DNA of 64,000 bases, taken from Capsulimonadaceae bacterium (GTDB lineage Bacteria; Armatimonadota; Armatimonadia; Armatimonadales; Capsulimonadaceae). Where the stretch lies: assembly GCA_965215505.1 (NCBI GenBank), contig OZ244065.1, positions 5,920,001 through 5,984,000 on the forward strand. The letters are read 5' to 3'. The notes under the pieces are model-generated. The model saw only the letters and a list, made by a program, of their open reading frames with translations. It ran no database searches and was not told the DNA's origin. The position numbers were made by a program, and so were the translations under genes. Below, one piece after another: positions 2,510 to 29,055 of the stretch (position 1 is the first letter of the stretch; each line of letters opens with the position of its first letter).

Positions 2510-5500
2510 ATGAAGCGAAATCAACTCAAGAAGCGAAATCAACTCAAGAACGGGGCGGCAGCCCTGGGCGCGGCCCTGCTCGGGCTGCTCGCCGGCTCCG
2601 CCGCGACGGCGCAGGTGGACGGCACCAACTGGGGCACCATCACCACCCCCGTCTACGGCACCTCGGAAACGGCCGTCGCGAACGGGACCTACAGCGCCGC
2701 CGAACTGCTCGCCGGGCCGAACAAGTCCGGAGAACTGTCGCTCCCGTCCACACTGACGCCCACCTACTTCGACGGCGTCCTGCCCAACGGCAAGAAGGTC
2801 ACGCCTGCGGGCGTCGTCGCCCAGATCGGTATGCACCCGCTGGGCAGCGCCTTGACGCCCGACGGCCAGTACATCATCCTCTCGTGCGACGACGAGCGCA
2901 ACATCACCGGCGGCCTCTCGACGCAGCCTTCGCCGACTACGGCGGGAACCACGGTCAACCTGCTCGGCGGCTACTCGGTCACCGTCCTGCGGACCTCGGA
3001 CATGAAGGTCGCTGCCCAGGCCAACGTCGGCCCGCTGTTCGTCGGCCTTCAAGTGGTTGCGAACGGCGCAGGCGGCTACACCGTCTACGCTTCCGGCGGC
3101 GGCGACCACAACGTCAAGGTCCTGACGTTCACCCCCCCGGCCACCGCGACCTCGCTCGGCACGCTGACGTCGGGGACGCCCATCAAGATCAACCCGATCA
3201 CGCCGAACGGCACGGCCACCAACTTCGCCGCGCTCCCTAACACCGGTGCCTTCAACGGCGGCGACTTCCCGGAGAACAGCGGCAACAGCGGCGGCGTCGT
3301 TGGCAGCGGCAGCGGCAACCGGCTGACCTTCCCGGCCGGCTCCGCCCTCAGCCCGACCGGCCGCTACTTGTATGTCGCCTGCAACGCCGACAACAGCCTG
3401 GCCGTCATTGACACCACCACCAACACAGTCATCAAGCAGGTCCCGGTCGGCTTCCTGCCCTACGGCGTCTCGGTCAGCCGCGACGGTTCCAAGGTCCTCG
3501 TCTCCAACTGGGGCGTCCAGCAGTACAGCTTCCTCGCCCCCCCGACGCTCGATGGGAACGGCAACGTGACCGCCCTTGCCTCAGTCACCCCCAGCGCCCC
3601 GAACGTCAGCGGCCTGTTCTTCGTGCCGGTCACCAGTACGGCGGGCACCAACCCGCAGACCTCTTCGGTGTCCGTCGTCTCCGTCCCCGGCGGTAACCCC
3701 GCCAGCGCCACCCTCCTGGGCAGCATCTACGAGGGCCAGCCCGCCGGGCTGGACGACCGCAGCATCGTCGGCGAGACCCACCCCTCCGCTTCGGCCATCG
3801 TGCGTCGCGGCACTATCGAGGTGGAGTACGTCGCCAAGGCCGGCAGCGACGCCCTGGGGCTGATCCTGGTCGCCAACAGCCGCAAGCTGCAAGACGTGGA
3901 CCTGTCTCCGCTCAATCTGAACCTGGACAGCCACACCGTCCACGGCACCTATCCTAACGCTTTGGCGGTCTCGCCGGACAACACGCGGCTTTATGTCGCC
4001 GAGGCGGGCCTGAACTCGGTGGCCGTGCTCGACACGACCAACCCGATGGCCCCCGTCCTGATCGGGCGCATCCCCACCGGCTGGTATCCCACTGCCCTGA
4101 GCGTCAGCGCGGACGGCAGGACCCTCTATATCGTCAGCGACAAGGGCGTCGGCGAGGACATCAACCCGGCGACGAACCTCGCCACCAACCCGACGGCCAG
4201 CGGCATCGAGTCGTTCAGCAACTCCAACTCCATCTTCGGCACCTTGCAGAAGGTTGACCTGACCCGCTACACGCCTGACCAGACCACCGCCCTGGCGAAC
4301 AACTTCGCCGTCCAGTCCGGCAAACTCGACACCTCCATCGTGCCGCTCGGCGGCCCGGCCTCGAACAAGATCAAGCATGTGATCTTCATCCTGCACGAGA
4401 ACAAGACCTTCGACTCCATGCTCGGCAATCAGGCCCACTTCGGCGCCTTCGCCAACCAGAACTATAATCTGGCGAATGGCACGACCAGCCTGGACACCGA
4501 GTACGCGGTGACCGGGCCGACCGGCTTCACGCAGCTCGCCTACAACACGCAGGCGCTGGCCGACACCTTCGCCACCGGCGTCAACTACTACTCGGACGCC
4601 GAGGAGAGCGACGGCGGGCATCAGTTCAGCGCCTCGGGCACGGCCAGCGACTACACCGAAAAGACGCTTCTCGTCAAGGGCGGGCGCGGCCTGCTCGCCA
4701 ACAAGAACATGGAGCCGGAGGACTACCCGGAGGGCGGCTACATCTTCAACAACGCCGCCCGCAACGGCGTCTCCTTCAAGGATTACGGGGCGCTCATCCG
4801 CGTCACCGGCACCGACAACGGCTACGCCAACCCGGCCAAGACCATTGACCCGCCCAGCGGCGGGGGCGGCCTGCCACTGGTGACGGGGCCGACGGTCAAC
4901 GGCGTCACCCTCGGGGCCGAGAGCAACCCGGTCCTCAACGGCCAGAACACCACTAGTGCTCCGTCCGCCTCCACTACGGTCGTCGAGGTGCCCGGCAGCG
5001 ATGTCACCTCGGCGACTCAAGGGCTGGGCCAGTCCTACTTCCTGAAGAACCCGATCCTCGCCATTTTGGGCGAAGCGAACGCCAACGGCGAGCCGCACCT
5101 GGACGTGAACTATCCGGGCTACAACTTCGGCATTTCCGACCAGCGCCGCGCCCTGGAGTTCATCAAGGACTTCGACCGCATGAGCGCCGCGGGCACGCTG
5201 CCGCAGTTCATCTACCTCTACCAGCCGAACGACCACTCCGGCAACCCCGCCGCCACGACCAACATCAGCATCACCGGCGGCAGTCCCTCGGGCGCGGAAC
5301 TGATCGCCGACGGCGACACGGCCCTCGGCATGGTGGTGAAGCACATCATGGGCACCCCCACCTACTACAACAGCGCCGACGGCACCGGCAGCGCGATCTT
5401 CATGACCTACGACGATGCCCAATCCGGCCGGGACCACCTGGACCCGCACCGGACGCCGATGATCGTCATCAGCCCCTACGCCAAGCCCGGCTTCCTGGGG

Positions 5501-20585: not shown

Positions 20586-23500
20586 CTATTGCAGCGGGTC
20601 GAACAGCGGCACGATGACGGTGCGCGGCTTGCCGATGGTGGACTGGACGAGCAGTGTGTGACTCTGCTTTCCGGCCGAAGGCAACAGCAGCTTTCGCGCG
20701 GCGGTCAGGCCCAAGCCCGCCGTTTTGTGGCCGTCAATCTCCAGCACTTCGTCGAACGTGTTGAGGGCGGCGCGGACAACGGGGTCGCGCGCCTGCACCT
20801 CGGCGAGTATGACGTGACCGTGGCCCTGCGGGTCCTTCGTTTCCATCAACGTCAGGCCCGTCGTCTTGGTGACAAAGGGGGCGCGGGTGGCCGAGGTGGG
20901 TGCGAAGAAGACGCGGGAGTGCGGGTAGTCGAAGGTGACGACGAACCGGGACAGCAGGGACACGCCGAGCGACCCGGCGTTGATGAGGGACGCGCCGCCC
21001 TTGGGGTCGAGGGAAAAATCGGTGGGCACGCCGCGCAGGGTGACGCCCGCGACTCGGAGGGACCCGGTGCGCGTGACGCGGGAGCGCGAGACGCCGCCGA
21101 TGCCGCCGCCGGTCGTCAGGAGGCCGTGCGGGTACTTCTTGTCCAAGCCATATTGGGCGACGAAGGGGCTGTAGAGCCGCAGGGCGGCTTCATCGCCGGT
21201 GTCAATGAGGAACCTCTGGGGCGGCAGGGCGTCGAACTGGGCGACGACGGAGGGAACGTCATTGTCCAGTTCGAGAGGAAGGGCGACGCCGTCCGAGGCA
21301 GTCGGGTGGAAGGCGTCGGGCCGCAGGAAGGTCAGCTTCTTGCGCGCGAAGTCCAGGCGGACGACGAAATGGGAGAGCAGGTCGTAGCCGACGAAGCCGG
21401 AGATCGGGCGGGTGAAGTAGGAGTTCAGGGTGTCCGGCAGGTCAATCGCGATCGCCGTCACATCGGTGAGCTGGACCGCGCCCGGCACCTCCACGCGGCT
21501 GACGAGGACCGGGTGCAGGTCGGTCGAGCCGCCGTAGCCGCGCGCCTCCAGGAAGCCGCTGCTTTTCAGCCCCAGACGAGTCGCCGTCTGCTGGGAGAGG
21601 GCGATGCCGCTGGCCCCGCTGTCCAGGAAGACGCGGCTGGGCTGCCCGTTGAGCCGCAGGTCGAGTCCGATCTCGCCGTCGTCGGTGTCGAAGGGGACCG
21701 TCGCGGATGTCTGGCCGGGCCTAATGAAGCGGAACTTGTCGCCGCCGGTCGGCGGCGCGAACAGGTCCGGCGGCAGCGTGATGTTGTTCTGGAGCCGGGT
21801 GACTTTCCCGACGATGTCGTAGCGTGCGGTGCCGTTCGTCGTCGTCATGCTGAAGGGAAAGCGCGCCCCGTCCACGGCCCGGTAGTCGCCGTAGCCGGTC
21901 GTCACCAGGATGTTGTCGTCGAGGTGCTGCTCCCGGACGATCAGGAACGTGTGCGGGTCGAAGAAGAGCGTGCTGGGCTTGCCGCCGTCGGGCAGGGCGT
22001 CCACGACCCAGTCGCCCGTTTCGGGGTCCGGCTGGGGGCGCAGGGTCAGCCGGCCGGGGATGCGGCCGGGCAGGACATAGGAATTGGTGTCGAAGAAGAG
22101 CTGGACGCGCAGGTCCTTCAGCTCTTCGCCCGCCAGCGGGCGGACGTTGCCGTTGGTGTCGCGCTGCCAGGCGCTCTTGCCGTCGTAGCCCTGGGTGATA
22201 TCCAGAATCCCGAGCTTGTCCTCCTCGTACTCCCGGTCGGGTGCGGCGTAGATGGTCGTGATCGTCCCCTGGATGCCGCCCGTCGAGACGCTGGAAACGA
22301 CCTTGGTGTTCTTGAGGGCCATGATGACGTCCGCGCCGCCTAGGGCGGTCAGGTGCTTCTGCATCAGCATCGCCAGCGTCATCGGCGGGTCTGTCGGCAC
22401 GGGCGGGGTCATCACGTCCGCCACCAGGGAGAAGTGTGCGCCCCCCGCCCGCGTTCGCAGGGCGCTCGGCAAGGCGGGCGGCACGAGCGGCGCGGGGGCG
22501 GGGGGCGGGGGCGGGCCGGCCGTGAGCTGCATCCGGCTGTGCGCGTAGTCGAACGTCACCTGGAAGCGGTTCAGTACCTGGTTGCCGATCCCGCCGGCGT
22601 TCGTGGAGACGCGGGCGATCCCCGGCCCGGTCAGTGTCGCCACGTCCAGGCCGCTGAACTTCAGGGTCCCGACGCCCATCGTGTGCCCCGGCGTGATCGT
22701 CTCTTGGACCACCCCGCCCACCCCACTGCCGGAGAGAATCCGGGCGCGCGGGTCGTTCGGGCGCGGCAGCAGGCCGTTCGCCTGGGCGTAGTCTCCGTAC
22801 AGGTGGACGCCGCCCGCGTCGCCCGTATCAACCAGGAACCGGGCGGGCGGGTGGCCGTCCACGGAGGCGAGGATCGTCGGCACCCGCCCCTCCAGCTTGA
22901 GCGGGACCGTGACGCCCGCCCCGTCGGGGACGCGCGGCGCGGCGGGGTCGGTCAGGGTGACGGTCTTCTGGGCATAGTCGATCCGCGTGACGAAGCGGGA
23001 AAGCAGCTCGTAGCCGATGCCGCCGTCCACGCGGCCCTGCGCGCTGAGGCGCTTGCCGACATTCGGGTCCTTGATGACGTGCAGGAGCTGGCCGGACAGG
23101 CGGACCGCGCCGCCGAGTTCGAGCGTCGCCTGCGTCGCGATCCCGGTGTCCGAGGAGCCGCCGTACCCGAGGGTGGGCAGGTTGCCCTGCGTGTTCAGCC
23201 CCGCCTCCTGGGCGGCCTGGGCGGTGATGAACGCCCCGCCCGCCCCGCTGTCCAGCAGGAAGCGGAGGGGGTGGCCATTGACCGAGACGAAGACGATGAC
23301 CTCGTTCTCGTCGGTCACGAAAGGGAACGCGGCCTGGGTGGTGGCACCGGGCGTCAGGAACTGCCAGTCTCGCGCCGGCCTCGGCAGCACGAACAGCGAA
23401 GCGACGAGCGTCGCCCGCGTCGCCTGGGTCAGCGCGGCATCAATGGTCAGCGGCAGCCCCGCCGGCTGGATCTGGAGGTGGCTGGGCGTCTGCAACCCGA

Positions 23501-24110
23501 ACAGCGGCTTGTAGGTCAGGATGCTGATCGTCGTGCTGATCCCGCCCTTCCGCACGACCGACTTGCGGATGAGGTACGTCTTCGGGTCCAAATAGATCGT
23601 CTGCTTGGTCCCGCCCTTCGGCAAGACGTCCAGCACATAACACCCCGTCTCGACGTCGCGCCCCGGCCGGAGCGTGATAGTGCCACTGCCGCCTTTGGAG
23701 GTGTGCTTGAGTGGGTCCACGCTTTCGAGCGAGAAGCCGTTGTCGGCCTTGTTCTCGGCCAGCTCCTCGCCGCCCAGGATGCGGACGTTGCCGTTGCCGT
23801 CCTGCTCCCAGGTCGTCTTGCCGTCGCTGCCGGACGTGTTGGAGATCGGCCCCAGCCGGACCTCCGTGCGGCTGCGGTGCTTTGACGCCTCGTAGGTCGT
23901 CATCGTGCCGCTCAGGCCGCCCGCGCTCATCGTGTAGACAGTTTCCTGCATCCCCGTGTCCGGGAAAGCGGTCGGCGAGCCGGTGGCCCGCTGGTGCCGC
24001 GCCAGCACCTCGTTGAGTGTCAGCGCGGCGGGCGGCAGGGCGGCGGCGGGGAGGAGCAGGCAGAGGAGGGACGCGCACAGGAGGGTGCGCTGGAAAAGGG
24101 TGTAGTTCAC
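20586..24110 (-). CDS. Secreted retropepsin-like aspartyl protease, internally duplicated, with degenerate C-terminal PDZ-like region
   Basis: Signal peptide; four catalytic motifs LLDSGA, LVDTGD, FLDSGA and LIDTGD, each with downstream G-x-I/V/L-G motifs. Confidence 0.85.
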   Translation of the reverse strand: MNYTLFQRTLLCASLLCLLLPAAALPPAALTLNEVLARHQRATGSPTAFPDTGMQETVYTMSAGGLSGTMTTYEASKHRSRTEVRLGPISNTSGSDGKTTWEQDGNGNVRILGGEELAENKADNGFSLESVDPLKHTSKGGSGTITLRPGRDVETGCYVLDVLPKGGTKQTIYLDPKTYLIRKSVVRKGGISTTISILTYKPLFGLQTPSHLQIQPAGLPLTIDAALTQATRATLVASLFVLPRPARDWQFLTPGATTQAAFPFVTDENEVIVFVSVNGHPLRFLLDSGAGGAFITAQAAQEAGLNTQGNLPTLGYGGSSDTGIATQATLELGGAVRLSGQLLHVIKDPNVGKRLSAQGRVDGGIGYELLSRFVTRIDYAQKTVTLTDPAAPRVPDGAGVTVPLKLEGRVPTILASVDGHPPARFLVDTGDAGGVHLYGDYAQANGLLPRPNDPRARILSGSGVGGVVQETITPGHTMGVGTLKFSGLDVATLTGPGIARVSTNAGGIGNQVLNRFQVTFDYAHSRMQLTAGPPPPPAPAPLVPPALPSALRTRAGGAHFSLVADVMTPPVPTDPPMTLAMLMQKHLTALGGADVIMALKNTKVVSSVSTGGIQGTITTIYAAPDREYEEDKLGILDITQGYDGKSAWQRDTNGNVRPLAGEELKDLRVQLFFDTNSYVLPGRIPGRLTLRPQPDPETGDWVVDALPDGGKPSTLFFDPHTFLIVREQHLDDNILVTTGYGDYRAVDGARFPFSMTTTNGTARYDIVGKVTRLQNNITLPPDLFAPPTGGDKFRFIRPGQTSATVPFDTDDGEIGLDLRLNGQPSRVFLDSGASGIALSQQTATRLGLKSSGFLEARGYGGSTDLHPVLVSRVEVPGAVQLTDVTAIAIDLPDTLNSYFTRPISGFVGYDLLSHFVVRLDFARKKLTFLRPDAFHPTASDGVALPLELDNDVPSVVAQFDALPPQRFLIDTGDEAALRLYSPFVAQYGLDKKYPHGLLTTGGGIGGVSRSRVTRTGSLRVAGVTLRGVPTDFSLDPKGGASLINAGSLGVSLLSRFVVTFDYPHSRVFFAPTSATRAPFVTKTTGLTLMETKDPQGHGHVILAEVQARDPVVRAALNTFDEVLEIDGHKTAGLGLTAARKLLLPSAGKQSHTLLVQSTIGKPRTVIVPLFDPLQ

Positions 24111-24152
24111 CCCGTTAGTTTACCGCATTCCGCGCCGATTTTTGGTCAGCCC

Positions 24153-24182
24153 TTGACAATCCCCGAAACCGTGTGCTATTAT
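24153..24182 (+). promoter_or_regulatory. Sigma70 promoter of the RNA-repair operon
   Basis: TTGACA (24153) and extended TGcTATTAT -10 (24174-24182); 18-nt spacer. Confidence 0.75.
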
Positions 24183-24195
24183 CTCGCCCGGACCC

Positions 24196-24417
24196 ATGAC
24201 TTCACGAAACCATAACCTGCTCGCGGCGACCCCCGGCATCCAGACACCCTCGTTCTGGTCGCCCCTCGCCGCGTCACGCCTGGCCGACGGTTTCGGTACG
24301 GGCGCGGCGGGCTGTTTCGCGCCCTCCGCCGCCTATCAGCCCGGCCAAGCCATAACCCCAGATTATCCCGCGCCGCCGGTTGCGCCTGCCTCATGTCACC
24401 AGGAGAGACATCCTTAG
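24196..24417 (+). CDS. Putative leader peptide (uORF, 73 aa)
   Basis: ATG lies just downstream of the -10 element; contains rare codons (ATA, AGA, CGA); a terminator follows within 40 nt. Confidence 0.45.
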   Translation: MTSRNHNLLAATPGIQTPSFWSPLAASRLADGFGTGAAGCFAPSAAYQPGQAITPDYPAPPVAPASCHQERHP

Positions 24418-24452
24418 TTTTTCCTCCCCCAACGACATTCAGCAGAGCAATC

Positions 24453-24486
24453 GGCCCCCGGCGCAAAGCCAGGGGCCTTTTTCTTT
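24453..24486 (+). terminator. Intrinsic terminator/attenuator upstream of the tRNA-Tyr and ligase genes
   Basis: GGCCCCcGGC-GCAAA-GCCaGGGGCC stem-loop followed by TTTTTCTTT. Confidence 0.75.
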
Positions 24487-24531
24487 GCCTCTTCGCGTCA
24501 CGGCGAAAGCCACAAAAGCAAGACAGAACAT

Positions 24532-24616
24532 CGGTTGGAGGCAGATACGGTTTGCTGCTCTGGTCTGTAAAACCAGTTCCCGTTGTGGAGTGTGGGTTCG
24601 AATCCCACCCAACCGA
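24532..24616 (+). tRNA. Atypical tRNA-Tyr(GUA), long variable arm
   Basis: Acceptor CGGTTGG/CCAACCG + A73; D stem GCAG/CTGC; anticodon stem CTGGT/ACCAG with GTA at 24567-24569; T arm GTGGG-TTCGAAT-CCCAC. Confidence 0.8.
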
Positions 24617-24649
24617 CTTGACCGACCATTCCGAAGGGAGGCGACGCGA

Positions 24650-25756
24650 ATGAGCGAACTGGAAGTACAGCGATTTTTACGCGGCGGCGGGACGCTCGCA
24701 GATCTGACGGCCACCTACGGCATCAAGGCGAAAGCCGATGTCGATCTCGGCGTCGTCATGCTGAACTACAACCAGATCGCCTCGCCGATGGCCGAAATGA
24801 TCTGCCAGGAGTGCCGCGCCCTGCTGCTCGAAATGGGCACCTGGGACGTGGTTTCGCGGAGCTTCTTCAAGTTCTTCAATCTGGGGGAGCCGAACGCCCA
24901 CGAGGTTGATTGGAAGACGGCGCGGGTGCAGGAAAAGCTGGACGGCAGCCTGGTCTGCCTCTACTTCCACCGAGGGCAGTGGCGGGTCGCGACGAAGGGA
25001 ACGCCGGACGCCTCCGGGCCGGTGAACAGCCACCCGATCACCTTCGCGGACCTGGTCAAGCAGACGCTGGCCGAGATGGGAAGCTCGTTCGAGGGCCTGA
25101 CGGCACATCTCGACCCGGCGGTCTTCTACTCCTTCGAGCTGACCGCGCCTGAGAACCGCATCATCGTCCCCTATGAAGACCGCCGCCTGACCTGGCTGGC
25201 GGCGTGGGATGCGCGGACCTTGGAAGAGCTGGACATTGAGGCGCTGCCCGACCTGCCCACCCCGCGCGTCCGGGAGTACCCGCTGCGGACTCTGGACGAG
25301 GTGATGACGGCGGTGGGGGCCATCGCGCCGTTCGCCGCCGAGGGCTTCATCGTGCGGGACGCGGCCCACCGGCGCGTCAAGATCAAGAGCGCGTCCTACC
25401 TGATGGTGGACCGCATCCTGAGTGCCCTCAGCACGCCCCGCCGCAAGGTGGAAGCGGTGCTGTCCGCGCAGTTCGACGACATGGTGCCGCAGCTCCCGCC
25501 CCAAGTGCGGGACGAGATGCTGTCGCTCCAGGCACATCTGGTGGCGTTCCGCCGGGAGGTGGCGGAGACGTTCGAGGCGCTTGCCGGGATCGAGGACCGG
25601 CGCGGGTTCGCGGCGGAGGCCTTGCGCCACCCGTTCTCGCCGATGCTGTTCTGGCTGCGGGACGGCAACGACATGGATGAGTGCTTCAGGCGGCTCCACC
25701 CGGACCGCCTGGTGGAATGGCTGGCGGTCGCGCCCGCCGGGGCGGAGGAGGAATAG
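24650..25756 (+). CDS. T4 Rnl1-like ATP-dependent RNA ligase
   Basis: ECRALL, SRSFFKFFN, QEKLDGS (motif I), FEL, EGFIV and VKIKS motifs. SD GGGAGG before ATG at 24650. Confidence 0.88.
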   Translation: MSELEVQRFLRGGGTLADLTATYGIKAKADVDLGVVMLNYNQIASPMAEMICQECRALLLEMGTWDVVSRSFFKFFNLGEPNAHEVDWKTARVQEKLDGSLVCLYFHRGQWRVATKGTPDASGPVNSHPITFADLVKQTLAEMGSSFEGLTAHLDPAVFYSFELTAPENRIIVPYEDRRLTWLAAWDARTLEELDIEALPDLPTPRVREYPLRTLDEVMTAVGAIAPFAAEGFIVRDAAHRRVKIKSASYLMVDRILSALSTPRRKVEAVLSAQFDDMVPQLPPQVRDEMLSLQAHLVAFRREVAETFEALAGIEDRRGFAAEALRHPFSPMLFWLRDGNDMDECFRRLHPDRLVEWLAVAPAGAEEE

Positions 25757-25759
25757 GAA

Positions 25760-26770
25760 ATGTCTACGCTTATCGTGGAGGTCTGCAAAATCGAAAAAGT
25801 GCTGGCGCATGACAACGCGGACGCGCTGGATCTGGCTCAAATCAAGGGCTGGCAGTGCGTCATCCCGAAGGGGAAGTACGCGCCGGGCGACCTGGTGACC
25901 TACATCCCCATTGATGCGGTCATCCCGGCCGAGCATTCGGACCGCTGGGGCATCACCAAGTACCTGTCCAACGGGCGGGTCCGGTGCGCGCGCCTGCGCG
26001 GCGAGCCGAGCTTCGGCGTCATCGTGGACCGCGACAATAAAGAATGGCCGGAGGGTAGGGACATCCAGGACTTCTACGGCATCACCAAGTACGTCCCGCC
26101 GGTCAAGATCAGCGCGGGCGACGCCGCCCCGTCCCACCCGCTGTTCGTCGAGTACACGGACGTCGAGAACCTGCGGAACTTCCCCGCCGTCTTCACGGAA
26201 GGCGAGGAGGTGTCGGTGTCGGAGAAGATTCATGGGACATCATGCCGGTTGGGGCTGGTCGAGGGCGAGTGGATGGCCGGCTCCATGTCGGTGCGCCGAC
26301 GCCGGCCCGAGGAGCTGTCGGGGAGCATCTACTGGCAGCCGATGGCCCTGCCGGATGTCGAGGCCCTGCTGAGTCACCTGGGCGCCTCGCACCGGCAGGT
26401 GATCCTGTACGGCGAGGTCTTCGGCAGCAAGGTCCAGAGCCTGGCCTATGGTCAGACCGGGGCGACCGGCTTCCGCGCCTTCGACCTACTGGCCGACGGC
26501 AAGTACCTGGACGCAGACGACTTCGCGGCCTTGTGCGCGCGGTTCGAGGTACTCGCCGTCCCCGTCCTGTACCGGGGGCCGTACAGCCTGGAGACAGTCA
26601 AGGCGCTGTCCGAGGGCGCGACGACCTTGGGCGCGGACCACATCCGCGAGGGCGTCGTCGTCCGCCCGGTGCGGGAGCGCAATGACCCGAAGGTGGGCCG
26701 GGTCTGCCTGAAATACATCGGCGACCCGTACCTGTTCGCCAAGAACGTCACGGACAGCCACGACGTTTGA
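25760..26770 (+). CDS. RNA ligase, DRB0094/DraRnl family
   Basis: N-terminal HDNADALDLAQIKGWQCV...RLRGEPSFG; SEKIHGT, LYGEVFG, FRAFD, REGVV and LKYI motifs. Confidence 0.88.
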   Translation: MSTLIVEVCKIEKVLAHDNADALDLAQIKGWQCVIPKGKYAPGDLVTYIPIDAVIPAEHSDRWGITKYLSNGRVRCARLRGEPSFGVIVDRDNKEWPEGRDIQDFYGITKYVPPVKISAGDAAPSHPLFVEYTDVENLRNFPAVFTEGEEVSVSEKIHGTSCRLGLVEGEWMAGSMSVRRRRPEELSGSIYWQPMALPDVEALLSHLGASHRQVILYGEVFGSKVQSLAYGQTGATGFRAFDLLADGKYLDADDFAALCARFEVLAVPVLYRGPYSLETVKALSEGATTLGADHIREGVVVRPVRERNDPKVGRVCLKYIGDPYLFAKNVTDSHDV

Positions 26771-26791
26771 CATTTCGAGAAAGGGAAAAAC

Positions 26792-27211
26792 ATGGAAAAG
26801 GAAAACATCAAGATCTTCGGAGACCACGAGGAGTCCACGTTGGCCCAGATCACGCGCTCGGCCTCCCCCGAGTCGGTCCGAGGCGCCGTCCTGTGCGCGG
26901 ACGGCCACAAGGGCTACGCCGTGCCCATCGGGGGCGTGATCGCCTACGAGGACAAGATCAGCCCGTCCGGAATAGGGTTCGATATCGCCTGCGGCAACAA
27001 AGCCGTGCGCCTGGACGTTCCCGCCTCGCAGGTGCGGGGCAAGATCAAGAAGATCATGGATGACGTCTGGAGCCACCTGGAATTTGGCATCGGTCGGACG
27101 AACGACACGCATGTGGACCACGAGCTGTTCGACGACGAGGCATGGAAGCTGTCGCCGATGAAGTCGCTAAAGCAGATGGCCCGCAACCAGCTTGGGACAA
27201 TCGGCAGCGGT
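26792..27211 (+). CDS. rtcB: RtcB RNA ligase, exon 1 (140 codons)
   Basis: ADGHKGYAVPIGG and GFDIACG motifs; ends QLGTIGSG. Confidence 0.92.
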
Positions 27212-27471
27212 GTCAGCCGCCTCGCATTGTAAGATGCGATGAGAAACCCGTCCAAATCGGGAAACGCCTGTGAGGGTAATTCCGAGGGAAGTGCGCTGGC
27301 GCGAGCCAACACCCCGTAGAGAGCAGAGGGACTTGGGCAGCCTGGGAACAGGCTGAAGGTGTGCTCCGAACTGCATGGAAAACGAACATGCAGAGCCAGG
27401 CGGAAACGACCTGGATGGTTTTGCTTTTTCGCGGCAGGAACCGCATAAAAAGCAAAACAGATAACAGACTG
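27212..27471 (+). ncRNA. Group I self-splicing intron (260 nt, no homing endonuclease ORF)
   Basis: Exon ends in U with P1 GCGGU/GCCGC (U-G wobble); intron ends in G; P/Q/R/S-like elements; P7 GAGCA/UGCUC; removal restores GSG|NHY in frame. Confidence 0.85.
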
Positions 27472-28227
27472 AACCACTATGTGGACATCTTCGCCGATGA
27501 GCAGGACCGGACCTGGATCGGCGCGCACTTCGGATCGCGCGGGCTGGGGCACAAGACGGCGACCTTCTTCCTGGAGGCGGGCGGGGCGAAGGACGGCATG
27601 GACGTGGACCCTCTGGTCCTCGACGTGCGCTCGTCGCTCGGCGGCGACTACCTCGCCTGCATGGCCCTGGCCGGGCGCTACGCCTACGCGGGGCGCGACT
27701 GGGTCTGCGCCGAGGTGGCGCGGCTGCTGGGGGCGAACATCCTGGAGGAAGTACACAACCACCACAACTTCGCCTGGAAGGAGACGCACGGCGGGCGGGA
27801 CCTGTGGGTGGTCCGCAAGGGGGCGACGCCGGCCTTCCCCGGCCAGAAGGGATTCGTTGGCGGCTCGATGGGGGACCAGTCGGTCATCCTGGAGGGCCTG
27901 GCTTCGGACGAGGCGACGGACGCGCTGCATTCGACGGTGCATGGTGCGGGCCGCGTGATGAGCCGGACGCAGGCGCGCGGCAAGGTCAACCGCAAGACGG
28001 GCCAGGTGATCTCGCCGGGCGTGGTCTCGCGCGCGATGATGCAGGAGTGGCTGCGCGAGAAGAACGTCGAGCTGCGCGGCGCGGGCACGGACGAGTCGCC
28101 GCATTGTTACAAACGGCTTCCGGACGTGCTGGCGCACCACGCCGGGTCCATCCGCGTCCTGCACACGCTGACGCCGCTCGGCGTGGCGATGGCAGGCGAG
28201 GACGTGGCAGACCCGTTTCGGGACTAG
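27472..28227 (+). CDS. rtcB: RtcB RNA ligase, exon 2 (spliced product 391 aa)
   Basis: Begins NHYVD; HFGSRGLG, HNHHN, VRKGATPA, GSMG, STVHGAGR and DESPHCYK motifs. Confidence 0.92.
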   Translation, partial: NHYVDIFADEQDRTWIGAHFGSRGLGHKTATFFLEAGGAKDGMDVDPLVLDVRSSLGGDYLACMALAGRYAYAGRDWVCAEVARLLGANILEEVHNHHNFAWKETHGGRDLWVVRKGATPAFPGQKGFVGGSMGDQSVILEGLASDEATDALHSTVHGAGRVMSRTQARGKVNRKTGQVISPGVVSRAMMQEWLREKNVELRGAGTDESPHCYKRLPDVLAHHAGSIRVLHTLTPLGVAMAGEDVADPFRD

Positions 28228-28231
28228 GCTC

Positions 28232-28261
28232 ACACCCGGCCCTTCCGGGCCGGGTGTTTTT
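28232..28261 (+). terminator. Terminator-like hairpin between rtcB and tRNA-Ile
   Basis: ACACCCGGCCC-TTCC-GGGCCGGGTGT followed by Ts. Confidence 0.65.
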
Positions 28262-28263
28262 CT

Positions 28264-28336
28264 GCTTCCGTCGCTTAACTGGACAAAGCGCGCCCCTTAT
28301 AAGAGCGTGATCCGGGTTCGAGTCCCGGCGGGAGTA
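28264..28336 (+). tRNA. tRNA-Ile(UAU) or tRNA-like RNA
   Basis: Acceptor GCTTCCG/CGGGAGT + A73; D stem GCTT/AAGC; anticodon loop CTTATAA (TAT at 28298-28300); T arm CCGGG-TTCGAGT-CCCGG. Confidence 0.78.
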
Positions 28337-28338
28337 GC

Positions 28339-29055
28339 CTATGAGCCGTGGGTCTTGGCCGGATGAGCGGGCTTGCGCTTGGCCGTGACGGAGGCGGCGG
28401 GCTTGTGGGGCTTTGTATGGGACACGGGGCTGACGAGGAACGTGACCGGCGTGAGGGCGGTGACGCTGCCGTCCGCCATCAGGGCGCTGGCCCCGAGCGT
28501 GTGGTCGCCGGGGCGGAAGAGGGAGGTGTCTATCGTCACTTTGCCCGACCCGTCCACCGTCAGGGGCGTCGGGGCACCGTCGAGGCTGAGGGTGAACTTC
28601 TGCGCCGTGAGCGCCCCCGTCGGCGTAATCGTGACGCTGGTCTTGCCGACGATGGTTTCCACCTTCATCGTGAAGGGCACGGCGTCGATGAGCTTGACGT
28701 TGTAGCGAGTCATCCGGGTGACCGCCCCGCCCCCCCGGCTCCAGTAGACCGCGATCTGCTCGGTCGGGTCGTGTTCGATGGCCGTGTTCCACACCAGCTT
28801 CCACGAGTCCAGGAAGTCGCCCTTGGTGAACTCGCCGTAGTCGTTGCGGAGGGCGAACGTGGTCATCATCATCTGCTGGCTGATCGTCCCCTGGAACACG
28901 ACGAGGGTGCCCCGCACGACCGTGAGCGGGATGGGGGTTGGGGACGGCTTGACCAGCACGGTCACGGTCGGTGCCTGGGCGGACGCCGCGCCACCGAAGC
29001 CGTAGACCGCAAAAATTACGAGGGCGGGGATGAGAGCCTGAGTGATAGCCTTCAT
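28339..29055 (-). CDS. Exported hypothetical protein with Ig-like C-terminal region
   Basis: Signal peptide ending ASA; beta-rich sequence; GC-biased third codon positions. Confidence 0.65.
   Translation of the reverse strand: MKAITQALIPALVIFAVYGFGGAASAQAPTVTVLVKPSPTPIPLTVVRGTLVVFQGTISQQMMMTTFALRNDYGEFTKGDFLDSWKLVWNTAIEHDPTEQIAVYWSRGGGAVTRMTRYNVKLIDAVPFTMKVETIVGKTSVTITPTGALTAQKFTLSLDGAPTPLTVDGSGKVTIDTSLFRPGDHTLGASALMADGSVTALTPVTFLVSPVSHTKPHKPAASVTAKRKPAHPAKTHGS

Follow-up and report, generated by a model that had tools for sequence, protein, structure and literature searches.

A probable leader-controlled operon for tRNA repair and spare tRNA supply in a Capsulimonadaceae bacterium, with a predicted group I intron in rtcB

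The rtcBA operon of Escherichia coli and Salmonella, under RtcR and sigma-54, and the rsr–yrlBA–rtcBA locus are established examples of stress-induced RNA repair by RtcB, and to our knowledge only two ways of sensing damaged tRNA are known – RtcR with sigma-54 in enterobacteria and the repressor TrcR in Anabaena. Here we describe a tRNA-repair locus of a soil-type Capsulimonadaceae bacterium (phylum Armatimonadota), at positions 24153–28336 of the window, that is, of the whole stretch of 64,000 nucleotides analysed (positions 5,920,001–5,984,000 of contig OZ244065.1, assembly GCA_965215505.1). All its elements lie on the + strand, in the order promoter, leader open reading frame (ORF), terminator, tRNA-Tyr, Rnl1-like RNA ligase gene, DraRnl-type RNA ligase gene, the two halves of rtcB and tRNA-Ile(UAU). 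We think it probable that the locus is a leader-controlled operon for tRNA repair and spare tRNA supply. An earlier note on this DNA had proposed a compact RNA-repair operon responding to translational stress; every element that it named was found in its place, by ORF list, ARAGORN, Rfam and hidden Markov model (HMM) searches, and its interpretation is partly supported, namely for the ligase families, the intron, the spare tRNAs and control by an RNA in cis.

Long tRNA arrays (L-arrays) have spread horizontally in several phyla; those of Anabaena stay silent until translation is impaired and are co-regulated with rtcB through promoter repeats, and their tRNAs are cleaved in stress, a rescue or a sponge role being discussed (passages on the arrays in PMC8421152). 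The promoter direct repeats bind the repressor TrcR (regulon passages of PMC10272220). For cyanobacteria, a connection of spare tRNAs and rtcB with translational stress has therefore already been published (same passages of PMC8421152). With the L-array (trn operon) and rtcB regulon of Anabaena sp. PCC 7120, as these passages of PMC8421152 and PMC10272220 present them, our locus has in common supernumerary tRNAs tied to rtcB, odd tRNAs, horizontal spread and a proposed part in translation recovery. By the same passages, TrcR acts in Anabaena on promoter repeats and rtcB lies elsewhere in the genome, whereas here a small ORF and a terminator precede the genes; and here, unlike in that regulon, ligases of three families are interleaved with tRNAs, of which there are only two. 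Since L-arrays are defined by many (up to 43) closely spaced supernumerary tRNA genes on one strand, we class the locus, with its two tRNAs, as a reduced relative of them and not as an L-array.

The rtcBA/RtcR systems offer a second comparison: no RtcR, RtcA, Ro60 or Pnkp gene is recognisable at our locus by ORF list and Pfam profile search, as the earlier note had said, and the promoter is of the sigma-70 type, whereas RtcA, a TROVE/Ro60 gene and a second rtcB occur elsewhere in the genome. The third is with leader-peptide transcription attenuators, known from trp, his and pheST. Like them, the leader has a short upstream ORF, an intrinsic terminator and a putative competing helix that shares bases with the terminator; it differs from them in having no run of a single regulatory codon and no identified region 1, in the length of its ORF (52–94 codons), whose N-terminus is conserved and whose PPIA motif lies over region 2, and in preceding tRNA and RNA-repair genes, not a biosynthetic operon. 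Control of tRNA repair by a small ORF and terminator was not found in the literature searched, nor were DraRnl, Rnl1-like, Thg1-like and RtcB genes interleaved with tRNA arrays (the supplementary tables of PMC8421152, which possibly list arrays in this phylum, were outside the scope of that search).

The leader unit and its recurrence in the genus

The leader comprises the following elements.

24153..24182, + strand: sigma-70-type promoter, TTGACA-18-TATTAT with TG before the −10 hexamer; 11/12 consensus matches
24196..24417, + strand: leader ORF, 73 codons; open in relatives with in-frame length changes
24375..24383, + strand: region 2 (GCCGGTTGC), inside the leader ORF and complementary to region 3
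24447..24455, + strand: region 3 (GCAATCGGC), sharing its final three bases with the start of the terminator stem
24453..24486, + strand: intrinsic terminator, hairpin and T-run, with compensatory changes among relatives

What carries our reading is the recurrence of this unit, because of which we regard the leader as a control element of tRNA rescue. ORF, region 2, region 3, terminator and promoter are all present in 12/12 genomes of the genus with the DraRnl module (the module is patchy, occurring in 12/23 other genomes of the genus). The leader pattern is found in 16/17 sampled genomes of the genus besides the host genome (G000; other G labels denote relatives, sister genomes of the genus being those compared), and in G000 as well, where the motif is unique. 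Altogether, 23 leader copies in 18 genomes were examined: the 12 with the DraRnl module and 11 further ones. Nine of the latter can be judged, eight of them with tRNAs, rtcB or a Thg1-like gene immediately downstream and one with rtcB 0.9 kb away:

G016, first copy: then rtcB directly
G017: then intein-bearing rtcB and tRNA-Ile(UAU)
G006: then tRNA-Lys, tRNA-Phe and intein-bearing rtcB
G016, second copy: then an array of 11 tRNAs
G023: then an array and rtcB
G001: then tRNA-Tyr and tRNA-Ile(UAU)
G020: then tRNA-Tyr
G014 (L195, G014:C5, 685-2105): then a Thg1-like protein (PF04446, E 1.1e-26) and a GNAT acetyltransferase
G013: rtcB 0.9 kb downstream
Two remaining copies: at contig ends, downstream genes beyond the contig

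Every judgeable copy thus has downstream, on the same strand, either spare tRNAs or an enzyme from a family whose targets are the ends of tRNAs; Thg1-like proteins of bacteria repair the 5′ ends. GNAT genes also appear in the TrcR regulon table of PMC10272220, one of the parts of that paper drawn on here. Matches to the leader pattern elsewhere in the phylum were set aside as chance-like, the pattern being too loose outside the genus. The earlier note's proposal of control at the RNA level is strongly suggested by this recurrence of an ORF–terminator unit upstream of tRNA-repair genes across the genus.

In the 4.5 kb scanned, there are two promoter-like sites against 0.4 expected from shuffled sequences, and there is no second one on the + strand. 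The promoter hexamers and the 13-nt spacing from the −10 element to the ATG are kept in relatives (alignment; sequences of G016 and G019). No Shine–Dalgarno sequence precedes the leader ATG (24182–24198), and the leader mRNA is probably nearly leaderless, to judge from these distances, with a very short 5′ untranslated region. The leader ORF is 52–88 codons long in the 12 DraRnl-module genomes and reaches 94 in further copies; its peptide keeps an N-terminus M-x4-5-N-L/F-x-A-A and (A/P)PPIA near the end. The G+C content at its third codon positions (GC3) is 0.70, and 0.55–0.70 in relatives, against 0.86–0.93 in neighbouring genes, and it abounds in codons rare for the genome. It has no match in Pfam, NCBIfam or PHROG, and of all Rfam families none matches the leader or the intron, either at the gathering threshold or at E ≤10 on 24000–28500.

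Region 2 lies twelve codons before the leader stop and contains GCCG(A/G)TTG in 12/12 module leaders, as codons for PIA. Its bases are kept in G016 although the ORF there reads this stretch in another frame, and the constraint therefore acts on the RNA. The AATCGGC of region 3 is invariant in 12/12, (C/T)AATCGGC running into the terminator hairpin, and the leader stop codon lies 21–30 nt upstream of region 3 in the 12 genomes. Among the twelve leaders, 95.4% of the alignment cells of the region 2/3 helix (helix 2:3) pair, with two G·U variants and zero double changes; lineage-specific extensions were noted by eye in several lineages (for example, GTCTTG/CAAGAC in G008 and GTCTT/AAGAC in G019). 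The terminator itself, which a simple terminator scan missed at 24453–24486 owing to an internal loop, has 95.8% of cells paired and compensatory changes in 5/10 pairs among 12 relatives, a covariation score reached by 0/500 shuffles. In RNAfold, the free RNA forms helix 2:3 together with a shortened hairpin that does not abut the T-run, and the full terminator forms when region 2 is blocked; the duplex energies are −14.3 kcal/mol for helix 2:3 and −19.4 for the terminator hairpin. From the T-run to tRNA-Tyr it is about 45 nt.

Ligases, spare tRNAs and surroundings

Downstream of the leader, the following features occur.

24532..24616, + strand: tRNA-Tyr(GUA), long variable arm, A8, C1-G72, no encoded CCA (ARAGORN; Rfam 48.9 bits)
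24650..25756, + strand: Rnl1-like ATP-dependent RNA ligase, 368 aa, motif KLDGS (PF09511, phrog_562)
25760..26770, + strand: DraRnl/Rnl5-type RNA ligase, 336 aa, N-terminal OB domain, motif KIHGT (TIGR02306)
26792..27211, + strand: rtcB exon 1, 140 codons, ending ...GSG with GGT (PF01139, E 2.4e-17)
27472..28227, + strand: rtcB exon 2, 251 codons, starting NHY and containing HGAGR (PF01139, E 1.7e-38)
28232..28257, + strand: 11-bp GC-rich hairpin followed by TTTTTCT, between the rtcB stop and tRNA-Ile
28264..28336, + strand: tRNA-Ile(UAU), G1·U72, C30·A40 mismatch, no encoded CCA (ARAGORN; Rfam 53.5 bits)

The genes are tightly packed – 32 nt from tRNA-Tyr to the Rnl1-like gene, 3 nt from there to the DraRnl gene and 21 nt on to rtcB – and each of the three ligase genes has a purine-rich stretch (ribosome-binding site) before its start codon. 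All three ligases have intact frames and keep their catalytic motifs, and the family assignments of the earlier note pass both HMM and PDB-sequence tests. The Rnl1-like protein matches PF09511 (RNA_lig_T4_1) with 57.1 bits (cut-off 28.3, E 3e-15), the phage family of T4 gp63 (phrog_562) over residues 29–343 (E 2.7e-44) and the T4 Rnl1 chain 2c5u (E 3.4e-7); with 60.1 bits it stays far below the cut-off of the T4 RnlA equivalog TIGR02308 (242.25), and we therefore call it Rnl1-like, a distant relative. The DraRnl-type protein scores 182.9 bits against TIGR02306 (DRB0094 equivalog; cut-off 151.15), is built of PF21189 (PHA02142 OB domain) and PF09414 (RNA_ligase nucleotidyltransferase), and matches the Naegleria RNA ligase NgrRnl (5cot) at E 1.8e-17. 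The two rtcB halves match PF01139 with 63.7 and 133.4 bits (cut-off 27) at model positions 8–94 and 174–424; joined, they give 391 codons, equal to intronless orthologues, with 93–94% identity to them, and we take the histidine of HGAGR to be the RtcB nucleophile. In a PHROG search, all three ligases match phage families.

Ligases of the Rnl1 and Rnl5/DraRnl families seal 3′-OH to 5′-P ends, and RtcB seals 2′,3′-cyclic-P or 3′-P to 5′-OH ends, such as those left by anticodon nucleases. Phage T4 Rnl1 (gp63), together with Pnkp, repairs PrrC-cut tRNA-Lys; our Rnl1-like protein shares its KxDG motif and a near full-length similarity to the phage family, but is distant from it, without a Pnkp partner and in a cellular context. 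The second ligase has the same OB plus nucleotidyltransferase build as DraRnl of Deinococcus radiodurans and NgrRnl of Naegleria (Rnl5), the difference being its place here among spare tRNAs and under a leader. The Rnl1-like gene occurs only in part of the genus (G000, G011, G015, G022 and partly G012), and DraRnl is split into three frames in G011 and G022.

Of the 64 genes that ARAGORN detects in the genome, 63 encode tRNAs and one a tmRNA; among them are a second, ordinary tRNA-Tyr, one tRNA-Ile(GAU) and four CAU tRNAs, and the tRNA-Ile of the module is the sole UAU tRNA. One CAU tRNA has the acceptor stem of tRNA-Ile(GAU) and is on that ground likely the lysidine-type tRNA-Ile2. Going by this gene content, both module tRNAs are supernumerary, in keeping with the earlier note, which had called them non-canonical and proposed that they serve as backups or decoys: they are extra copies beside another tRNA-Tyr and a CAU-type tRNA-Ile2 candidate, and their oddities are A8 in the former and G1·U72 with C30·A40 in the latter. 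The missing CCA is not unusual here, 7/8 inspected tRNAs of the genome having none encoded. The 1–72 pair of the module tRNA-Tyr is C1-G72 in this and three sister species and G1-C72 in three others, and compensatory changes among relatives are seen in this pair, the D stem, the anticodon stem and the variable arm. In tRNA-Ile(UAU), of which G1·U72 is present in 5/6 copies and the C30·A40 mismatch in 3/6, the changes in the T stem are compensatory. Both are therefore maintained tRNA-like molecules with unusual features. A weak Deinococcus Y-RNA match over tRNA-Ile (19 against 80 bits) was dismissed as reflecting the tRNA-like part of that RNA.

The earlier note had described the ligases as bracketed by two tRNAs, which is true here but a local accident, for synteny shows that sister-species modules have 8–15 tRNAs interleaved with the same DraRnl and RtcB genes. 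The array of G005 runs tRNA-Lys, Glu, Tyr, Cys – DraRnl – Pro, His, Trp, Leu (three times), Asn, Asp, Arg, Ser (twice) – RtcB, and that of G014 runs Cys, Tyr – DraRnl – Gly, Leu, Ile(UAU), Leu, Asn, Asp, Arg, Ser – RtcB; those of G018 and G003 resemble them. The locus is therefore a reduced tRNA-array/RNA-ligase island. Odd tRNAs are found in arrays of sisters, too (L189 (G016) 4249–4322; arrays L015 and L016), such as a tRNA-Phe(AAA), a 73-nt tRNA-Leu without a long variable arm, an 85-nt tRNA-Trp, and a 94-nt tRNA-Ile(UAU) in G018.

The same note's single-strand operon is correct in its order, but tRNA-Ile does not lie simply inside the transcription unit, being preceded by the hairpin and T-run at 28232–28257. 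The rtcB–tRNA-Ile(UAU) pair also occurs in G012, G022 and G017. In relatives, the corresponding spot is taken by a GC-rich hairpin that differs in sequence and lacks the T-run, a feature of the window only, and the tRNA begins 4–6 nt past the hairpin. The hairpin would then be a processing or 3′-end-stabilising structure of a co-transcript cut by RNase P rather than a dedicated terminator, and it may terminate part of the transcripts in this genome.

The host genome is a single contig of 6.18 Mb with 66.5% G+C, and the genes flanking the locus are unrelated to it: a double aspartyl-protease-like protein on the other strand, a 253-aa protein without assignment and a GGDEF/HD-GYP protein. Both flanking genes are shared with G011, and G022 has the downstream gene only. 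The GC3 of the ligase genes (0.86–0.93) is host-like, and with the common flanks in G011 and G022 this argues that the island is not a recent arrival. The first of the neighbours adjoins the module in G011 as well:

20586..24110, − strand: 1174-aa protein, signal-like N-terminus, two retropepsin-like aspartyl-protease domains (Asp_protease_2, E 3.5e-30)

Elsewhere in the genome, an odd 75-nt CAU tRNA-like gene that matches none of the three usual CAU tRNAs is found about 400 nt from the RtcA gene (G000:C1:2218412-2219837); here, too, an RNA-repair gene and a tRNA may be associated.

The intron in rtcB

Mobile group I introns with LAGLIDADG genes are known from T4 td and nrdB and from Bacillus recA and nrdE, and the cyanobacterial tRNA-Leu intron is known as well. 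By the comparisons that follow, the insert in rtcB, which the earlier note had recognised as an intron, is a real group I intron, and on the same grounds the copy in the window is a degenerate representative of a family of mobile introns with LAGLIDADG genes, whose homing target is the GxG|NH codons of rtcB in several phyla. Its likeness to the mobile group I introns lies in the helices P1–P9, the U·G at the 5′ splice site, the terminal G and the insertion into a conserved catalytic-site codon and, for the family, in an endonuclease gene in a peripheral loop and patchy presence; it differs in its host gene, rtcB, for which the literature searched gave no intron, in the missing RF00028 match and in the lack of an endonuclease in the window copy.

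The insertion point is GSG|NHY of rtcB, where the exons directly adjoin each other in intronless relatives. The same insert is carried by G022 (254 nt, 92% identical) and absent from rtcB of nine relatives (G011, G012, G015, G014, G005, G018, G003, G016 and G023); the junctions inspected in four of these (G011, G012, G015 and G005) are all exactly colinear. The last codon of exon 1 is GGT in both intron-bearing alleles, and GGC, GGA, GGG and GGC in the four intronless ones. The insert is present once in the genome, on which ground its identity as a repeat or miniature inverted-repeat transposable element was rejected. A search of 401 genomes of the phylum with the intronless orthologue gave a homologous insert of 239 nt at the same codon in another family (G239). 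A 17-mer common to the two introns, scanned over one genome per prokaryote species, returned 77 loci, 64 of them with P1 and the conserved 5′ part in the rtcB context ...LG(S/T)LGGG|; our own covariance model, R1, recovered two further rtcB introns (66/77 in total), and the remaining 11 were taken as chance, ten having no R1 match and one a marginal partial one (12.8 bits, E 0.007). The hosts belong to four phyla – mostly Cyanobacteria, with Pyrinomonadaceae (Acidobacteriota), Chthonomonadaceae and Firmicutes (Shimazuella, Paenibacillus, Thermincola) – and their RtcB proteins are only about 25–31% identical to that encoded here, yet have the identical insertion point.

The fold, with intron base 1 at 27212 and helices assigned by ourselves with the known group I architecture for a guide, is as follows.

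27212..27471, + strand: group I intron, 260 nt, without an ORF (exact presence/absence against relatives; fold on 60 sequences)
P1: exon end with intron 5–9; U·G at the 5′ splice site
P2: intron 11–17 with 22–28; GUAA loop
P3: intron 39–42 with 118–121
J3/4: AAAU
P4: intron 47–50 with 70–73
P5: intron 56–57 with 64–65
P6: intron 75–82 with 99–104; loop holds an extra GNRA-capped hairpin
P7: intron 110–113 with 152–155; pseudoknot with P3
P8: intron 127–133 with 138–144
J8/7: AAGGUGU
P9: intron 160–166 with 176–182
P9.1: intron 185–191 with 196–203
P9.2: intron 207–247
Terminal G: intron 260

In the alignment of 60 distinct sequences, 98.5% of 3237 cells are standard pairs and 29/54 pairs show compensatory changes, values that 0/500 shuffles reach, and partners slid by 1–3 columns pair in only 35–43%. 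Compensatory changes occur in each of P4, P5, P6, P8, P9 and P9.1, whereas P3 and P7, invariant and 100% paired, fit the fold and add no proof. In P1, with 95% of cells paired across the same sequences, the exon GCGGU pairs with intron bases 5–9 (GCCGC), and across the 64 loci the guide sequence tracks the exon: GCGGU/GCCGC here, and GGGGU/GCCCC, GAGGU/GCCUC and GUGGU/GCCAC elsewhere. The terminal base is G here and in each of the 37 introns whose 3′ end was mapped; the intron retains every column that is invariant in the alignment and is the only match of R1 in the window (188.7 bits). At least 13 copies among those with inspected tails run after P9.1 into an ORF with LAGLIDADG-type motifs, that of one relative matching LAGLIDADG_3 at E 8.4e-10. 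The window copy has a 41-nt hairpin in place of this gene and is therefore no longer able to home unaided.

Between the rtcB exons of the two intron-bearing alleles, 139 sites differ, 102 of them third positions, and there is no internal stop. This bias argues that rtcB is still under selection and that the intron must therefore be removed, in contrast to the fast decay of DraRnl (three frames in G011 and G022) once released from selection; from this purifying selection on the exons, removal would be by the predicted self-splicing. Of the public sequence runs, 24 were found, ten containing at least half of the stretch's words (none of these recorded as RNA) and one recorded as RNA. The contigs of three RNA-labelled runs and of the best-matching run were aligned to the locus. 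Those of the RNA-labelled runs are 90–95% alike, hence from relatives, and span the intron together with its two exon borders, as well as rtcB exon 2; no GGT|AAC spliced junction was found among the aligned contigs, all from relatives at 90–95%. One contig skips 27211–27471, but it was rejected as spliced RNA because the C before its joint (GGC|AAC) marks an intronless allele. The same data set (run X19 over 27080–27513, environmental and of doubtful kind) thus holds intron-bearing and intronless rtcB of close relatives, which suggests that the intron is polymorphic within natural populations.

No tRNA array lies within 10 kb on either side of intron-bearing rtcB of other phyla (0/5 loci), and intron and arrays therefore travel separately. 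No description of an intron in rtcB was found in the literature searched, and none is mentioned in the passages on the Anabaena regulon in PMC8421152 and PMC10272220; inteins in RtcB are already known (PMC4760082). An rtcB paralogue of another Chthonomonadaceae genome (L153, G410:C2, 8142–11642) has both, an intein in exon 1 (Intein_splicing, E 3.8e-19) and a copy of the group I intron that has a LAGLIDADG ORF of 265 aa, and the rtcB orthologues of G017, G013, G006, G177 and G038 have an in-frame insert of about 1.3 kb near residue 66, presumably an intein, which makes rtcB a hot spot for both kinds of element in this lineage. The rtcB of G211 (L061, G211:C1, about 1207500–1211076) contains a 2.4-kb insert six codons past the intron site, after NHYVDL; without an R1 match it is a different element, and its identity with the intron was rejected. 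In an Aulosira metagenome-assembled genome (L131), R1 matches twice in 1.2 kb, at 987–1216 and 512–725 (145.9 and 52.7 bits), and the second match may be a second, diverged intron near the first.

Possible explanations and their meaning

On the mechanism that we propose, the strong, constitutive-type promoter would give a transcript opening with the small ORF, and the position of the ribosome on that ORF would decide between helix 2:3 and the terminator. During normal translation, region 2 would be occupied or unwound, the terminator would form and the operon would be off; with translation slowed or failing, region 2 would be free, the foot of the terminator would be lost and RNA polymerase would read on into the spare tRNA-Tyr, the Rnl1-like and DraRnl/Rnl5 ligases, RtcB and, past the hairpin, the spare tRNA-Ile(UAU), the rtcB mRNA first losing its 260-nt ORF-less intron by self-splicing. 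This polarity – impaired translation leading to read-through – is preferred by analogy with classical attenuators and with induction in Anabaena. Attenuation and its polarity, co-transcription, stress induction, the substrates of the ligases with the sealing of both kinds of break, and actual splicing are thus what we infer; the decoy role that the earlier note had suggested for the tRNAs likewise is a proposal.

Several observations weigh against this reading. Helix 2:3 has no compensatory double change, its support consisting of conservation, the two G·U changes and the extensions seen by eye; it overlaps the terminator by 3 bp only, so that the terminator may be weakened and not abolished; and region 2 would stay uncovered by a ribosome waiting at the stop codon of the leader, which makes other timing models possible. 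The two ATP-dependent ligases have no Pnkp-type end-healing enzyme at the locus, the shortfall against TIGR02308 sets the Rnl1-like protein apart from its T4 namesake, and the broken DraRnl of two sister genomes makes parts of the module dispensable. The hairpin and T-run part rtcB from tRNA-Ile. As to the intron, Rfam RF00028 (group I), a model that misses many group I subgroups, has no match at E ≤10 in 24000–28500 and none genome-wide, and the one contig lacking the intron proved to come from an intronless allele.

A simpler explanation would make the leader ORF an ordinary small-protein gene with its own terminator, the tRNAs and ligases being served by unrecognised downstream promoters and the neighbourhood reflecting shared function or descent. 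The conserved N-terminus and PPIA residues, not obviously needed by a regulatory leader, speak for it, as do the missing double change in helix 2:3 and the strength of the leader terminator (−19.4 against −14.3 kcal/mol). We nevertheless hold it unlikely, with only about 45 nt between T-run and tRNA-Tyr and no second + strand promoter-like site in 4.5 kb, with region 2 conserved as nucleotides, third codon positions included, even where G016 reads it in a different frame, and with region 3 overlapping the terminator foot in 12/12 leaders; the low GC3 of the ORF and its lack of any family match also tell against an ordinary gene. Still less credible, in our estimate, is that the locus is the decaying remnant of a horizontally acquired, phage- or plasmid-borne tRNA-array island without host function, its rtcB inactivated by the intron. 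That L-arrays spread horizontally (array passages of PMC8421152) fits such a history, and so do the patchy occurrence of the DraRnl module (12/23 other genomes), its broken DraRnl in G011 and G022, the phage-family matches of the three ligases, the two tRNAs left of 8–15 in sisters and the loss of the intron's homing-endonuclease gene. Decay is not what the sequences look like, though: the ligase frames are intact, with motifs kept and a GC3 of 0.86–0.93, the rtcB exons change mainly at third positions, the intron retains all invariant columns of the 60-sequence alignment, the tRNA cloverleaves are kept through compensatory changes, and the flanking genes are the same in G011, the downstream one also in G022.

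A narrower version of the leader-controlled operon, and a special case of it, is that the module chiefly counters anticodon nucleases – whether from competitors, from phages or among the toxins of the cell itself – with odd tRNAs that would be cleavage-resistant or sacrificial and ligases that would reseal the cut ones. T4 Rnl1 does repair nuclease-cut tRNA; the tRNA-Tyr has A8, and C1-G72 in part of the genus, the tRNA-Ile has G1·U72, and the arrays of relatives contain further odd tRNAs (the 73-nt tRNA-Leu, the 85-nt tRNA-Trp and tRNA-Phe(AAA)). Anabaena array tRNAs are cleaved in stress and a sponge role has been proposed for them (same passages of PMC8421152). Since, however, no nuclease or toxin gene is recognisable at the locus by ORF and Pfam scan (no PADLOC search having been made) and nothing ties the anticodons of the module to a known nuclease of this organism, we regard this emphasis as rather improbable, if a little less so than the small-protein gene.

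To the probable leader-controlled operon we would add a wider proposal, offered tentatively: that the leader is a ribosome-mediated sensor of failing translation which defines, without a protein regulator, a genus-wide tRNA-rescue regulon of arrays, RtcB, Rnl5, Rnl1-like and Thg1-like proteins, and whose rtcB carries an undescribed and widely travelling intron family. Two parts of the finding, the leader unit and the rtcB intron family, seem undescribed. If true, a cis-acting leader that reads translation would be a third and simpler logic for sensing tRNA damage, releasing spare tRNAs together with three or four kinds of repair enzyme. The locus would further tie DraRnl/Rnl5 and an Rnl1-like ligase to tRNA. 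The rtcB intron family, present in at least four phyla and sometimes beside an intein, would make rtcB one more of the few protein-coding genes of bacteria that harbour group I introns and would explain rtcB genes that automatic annotation would call broken.

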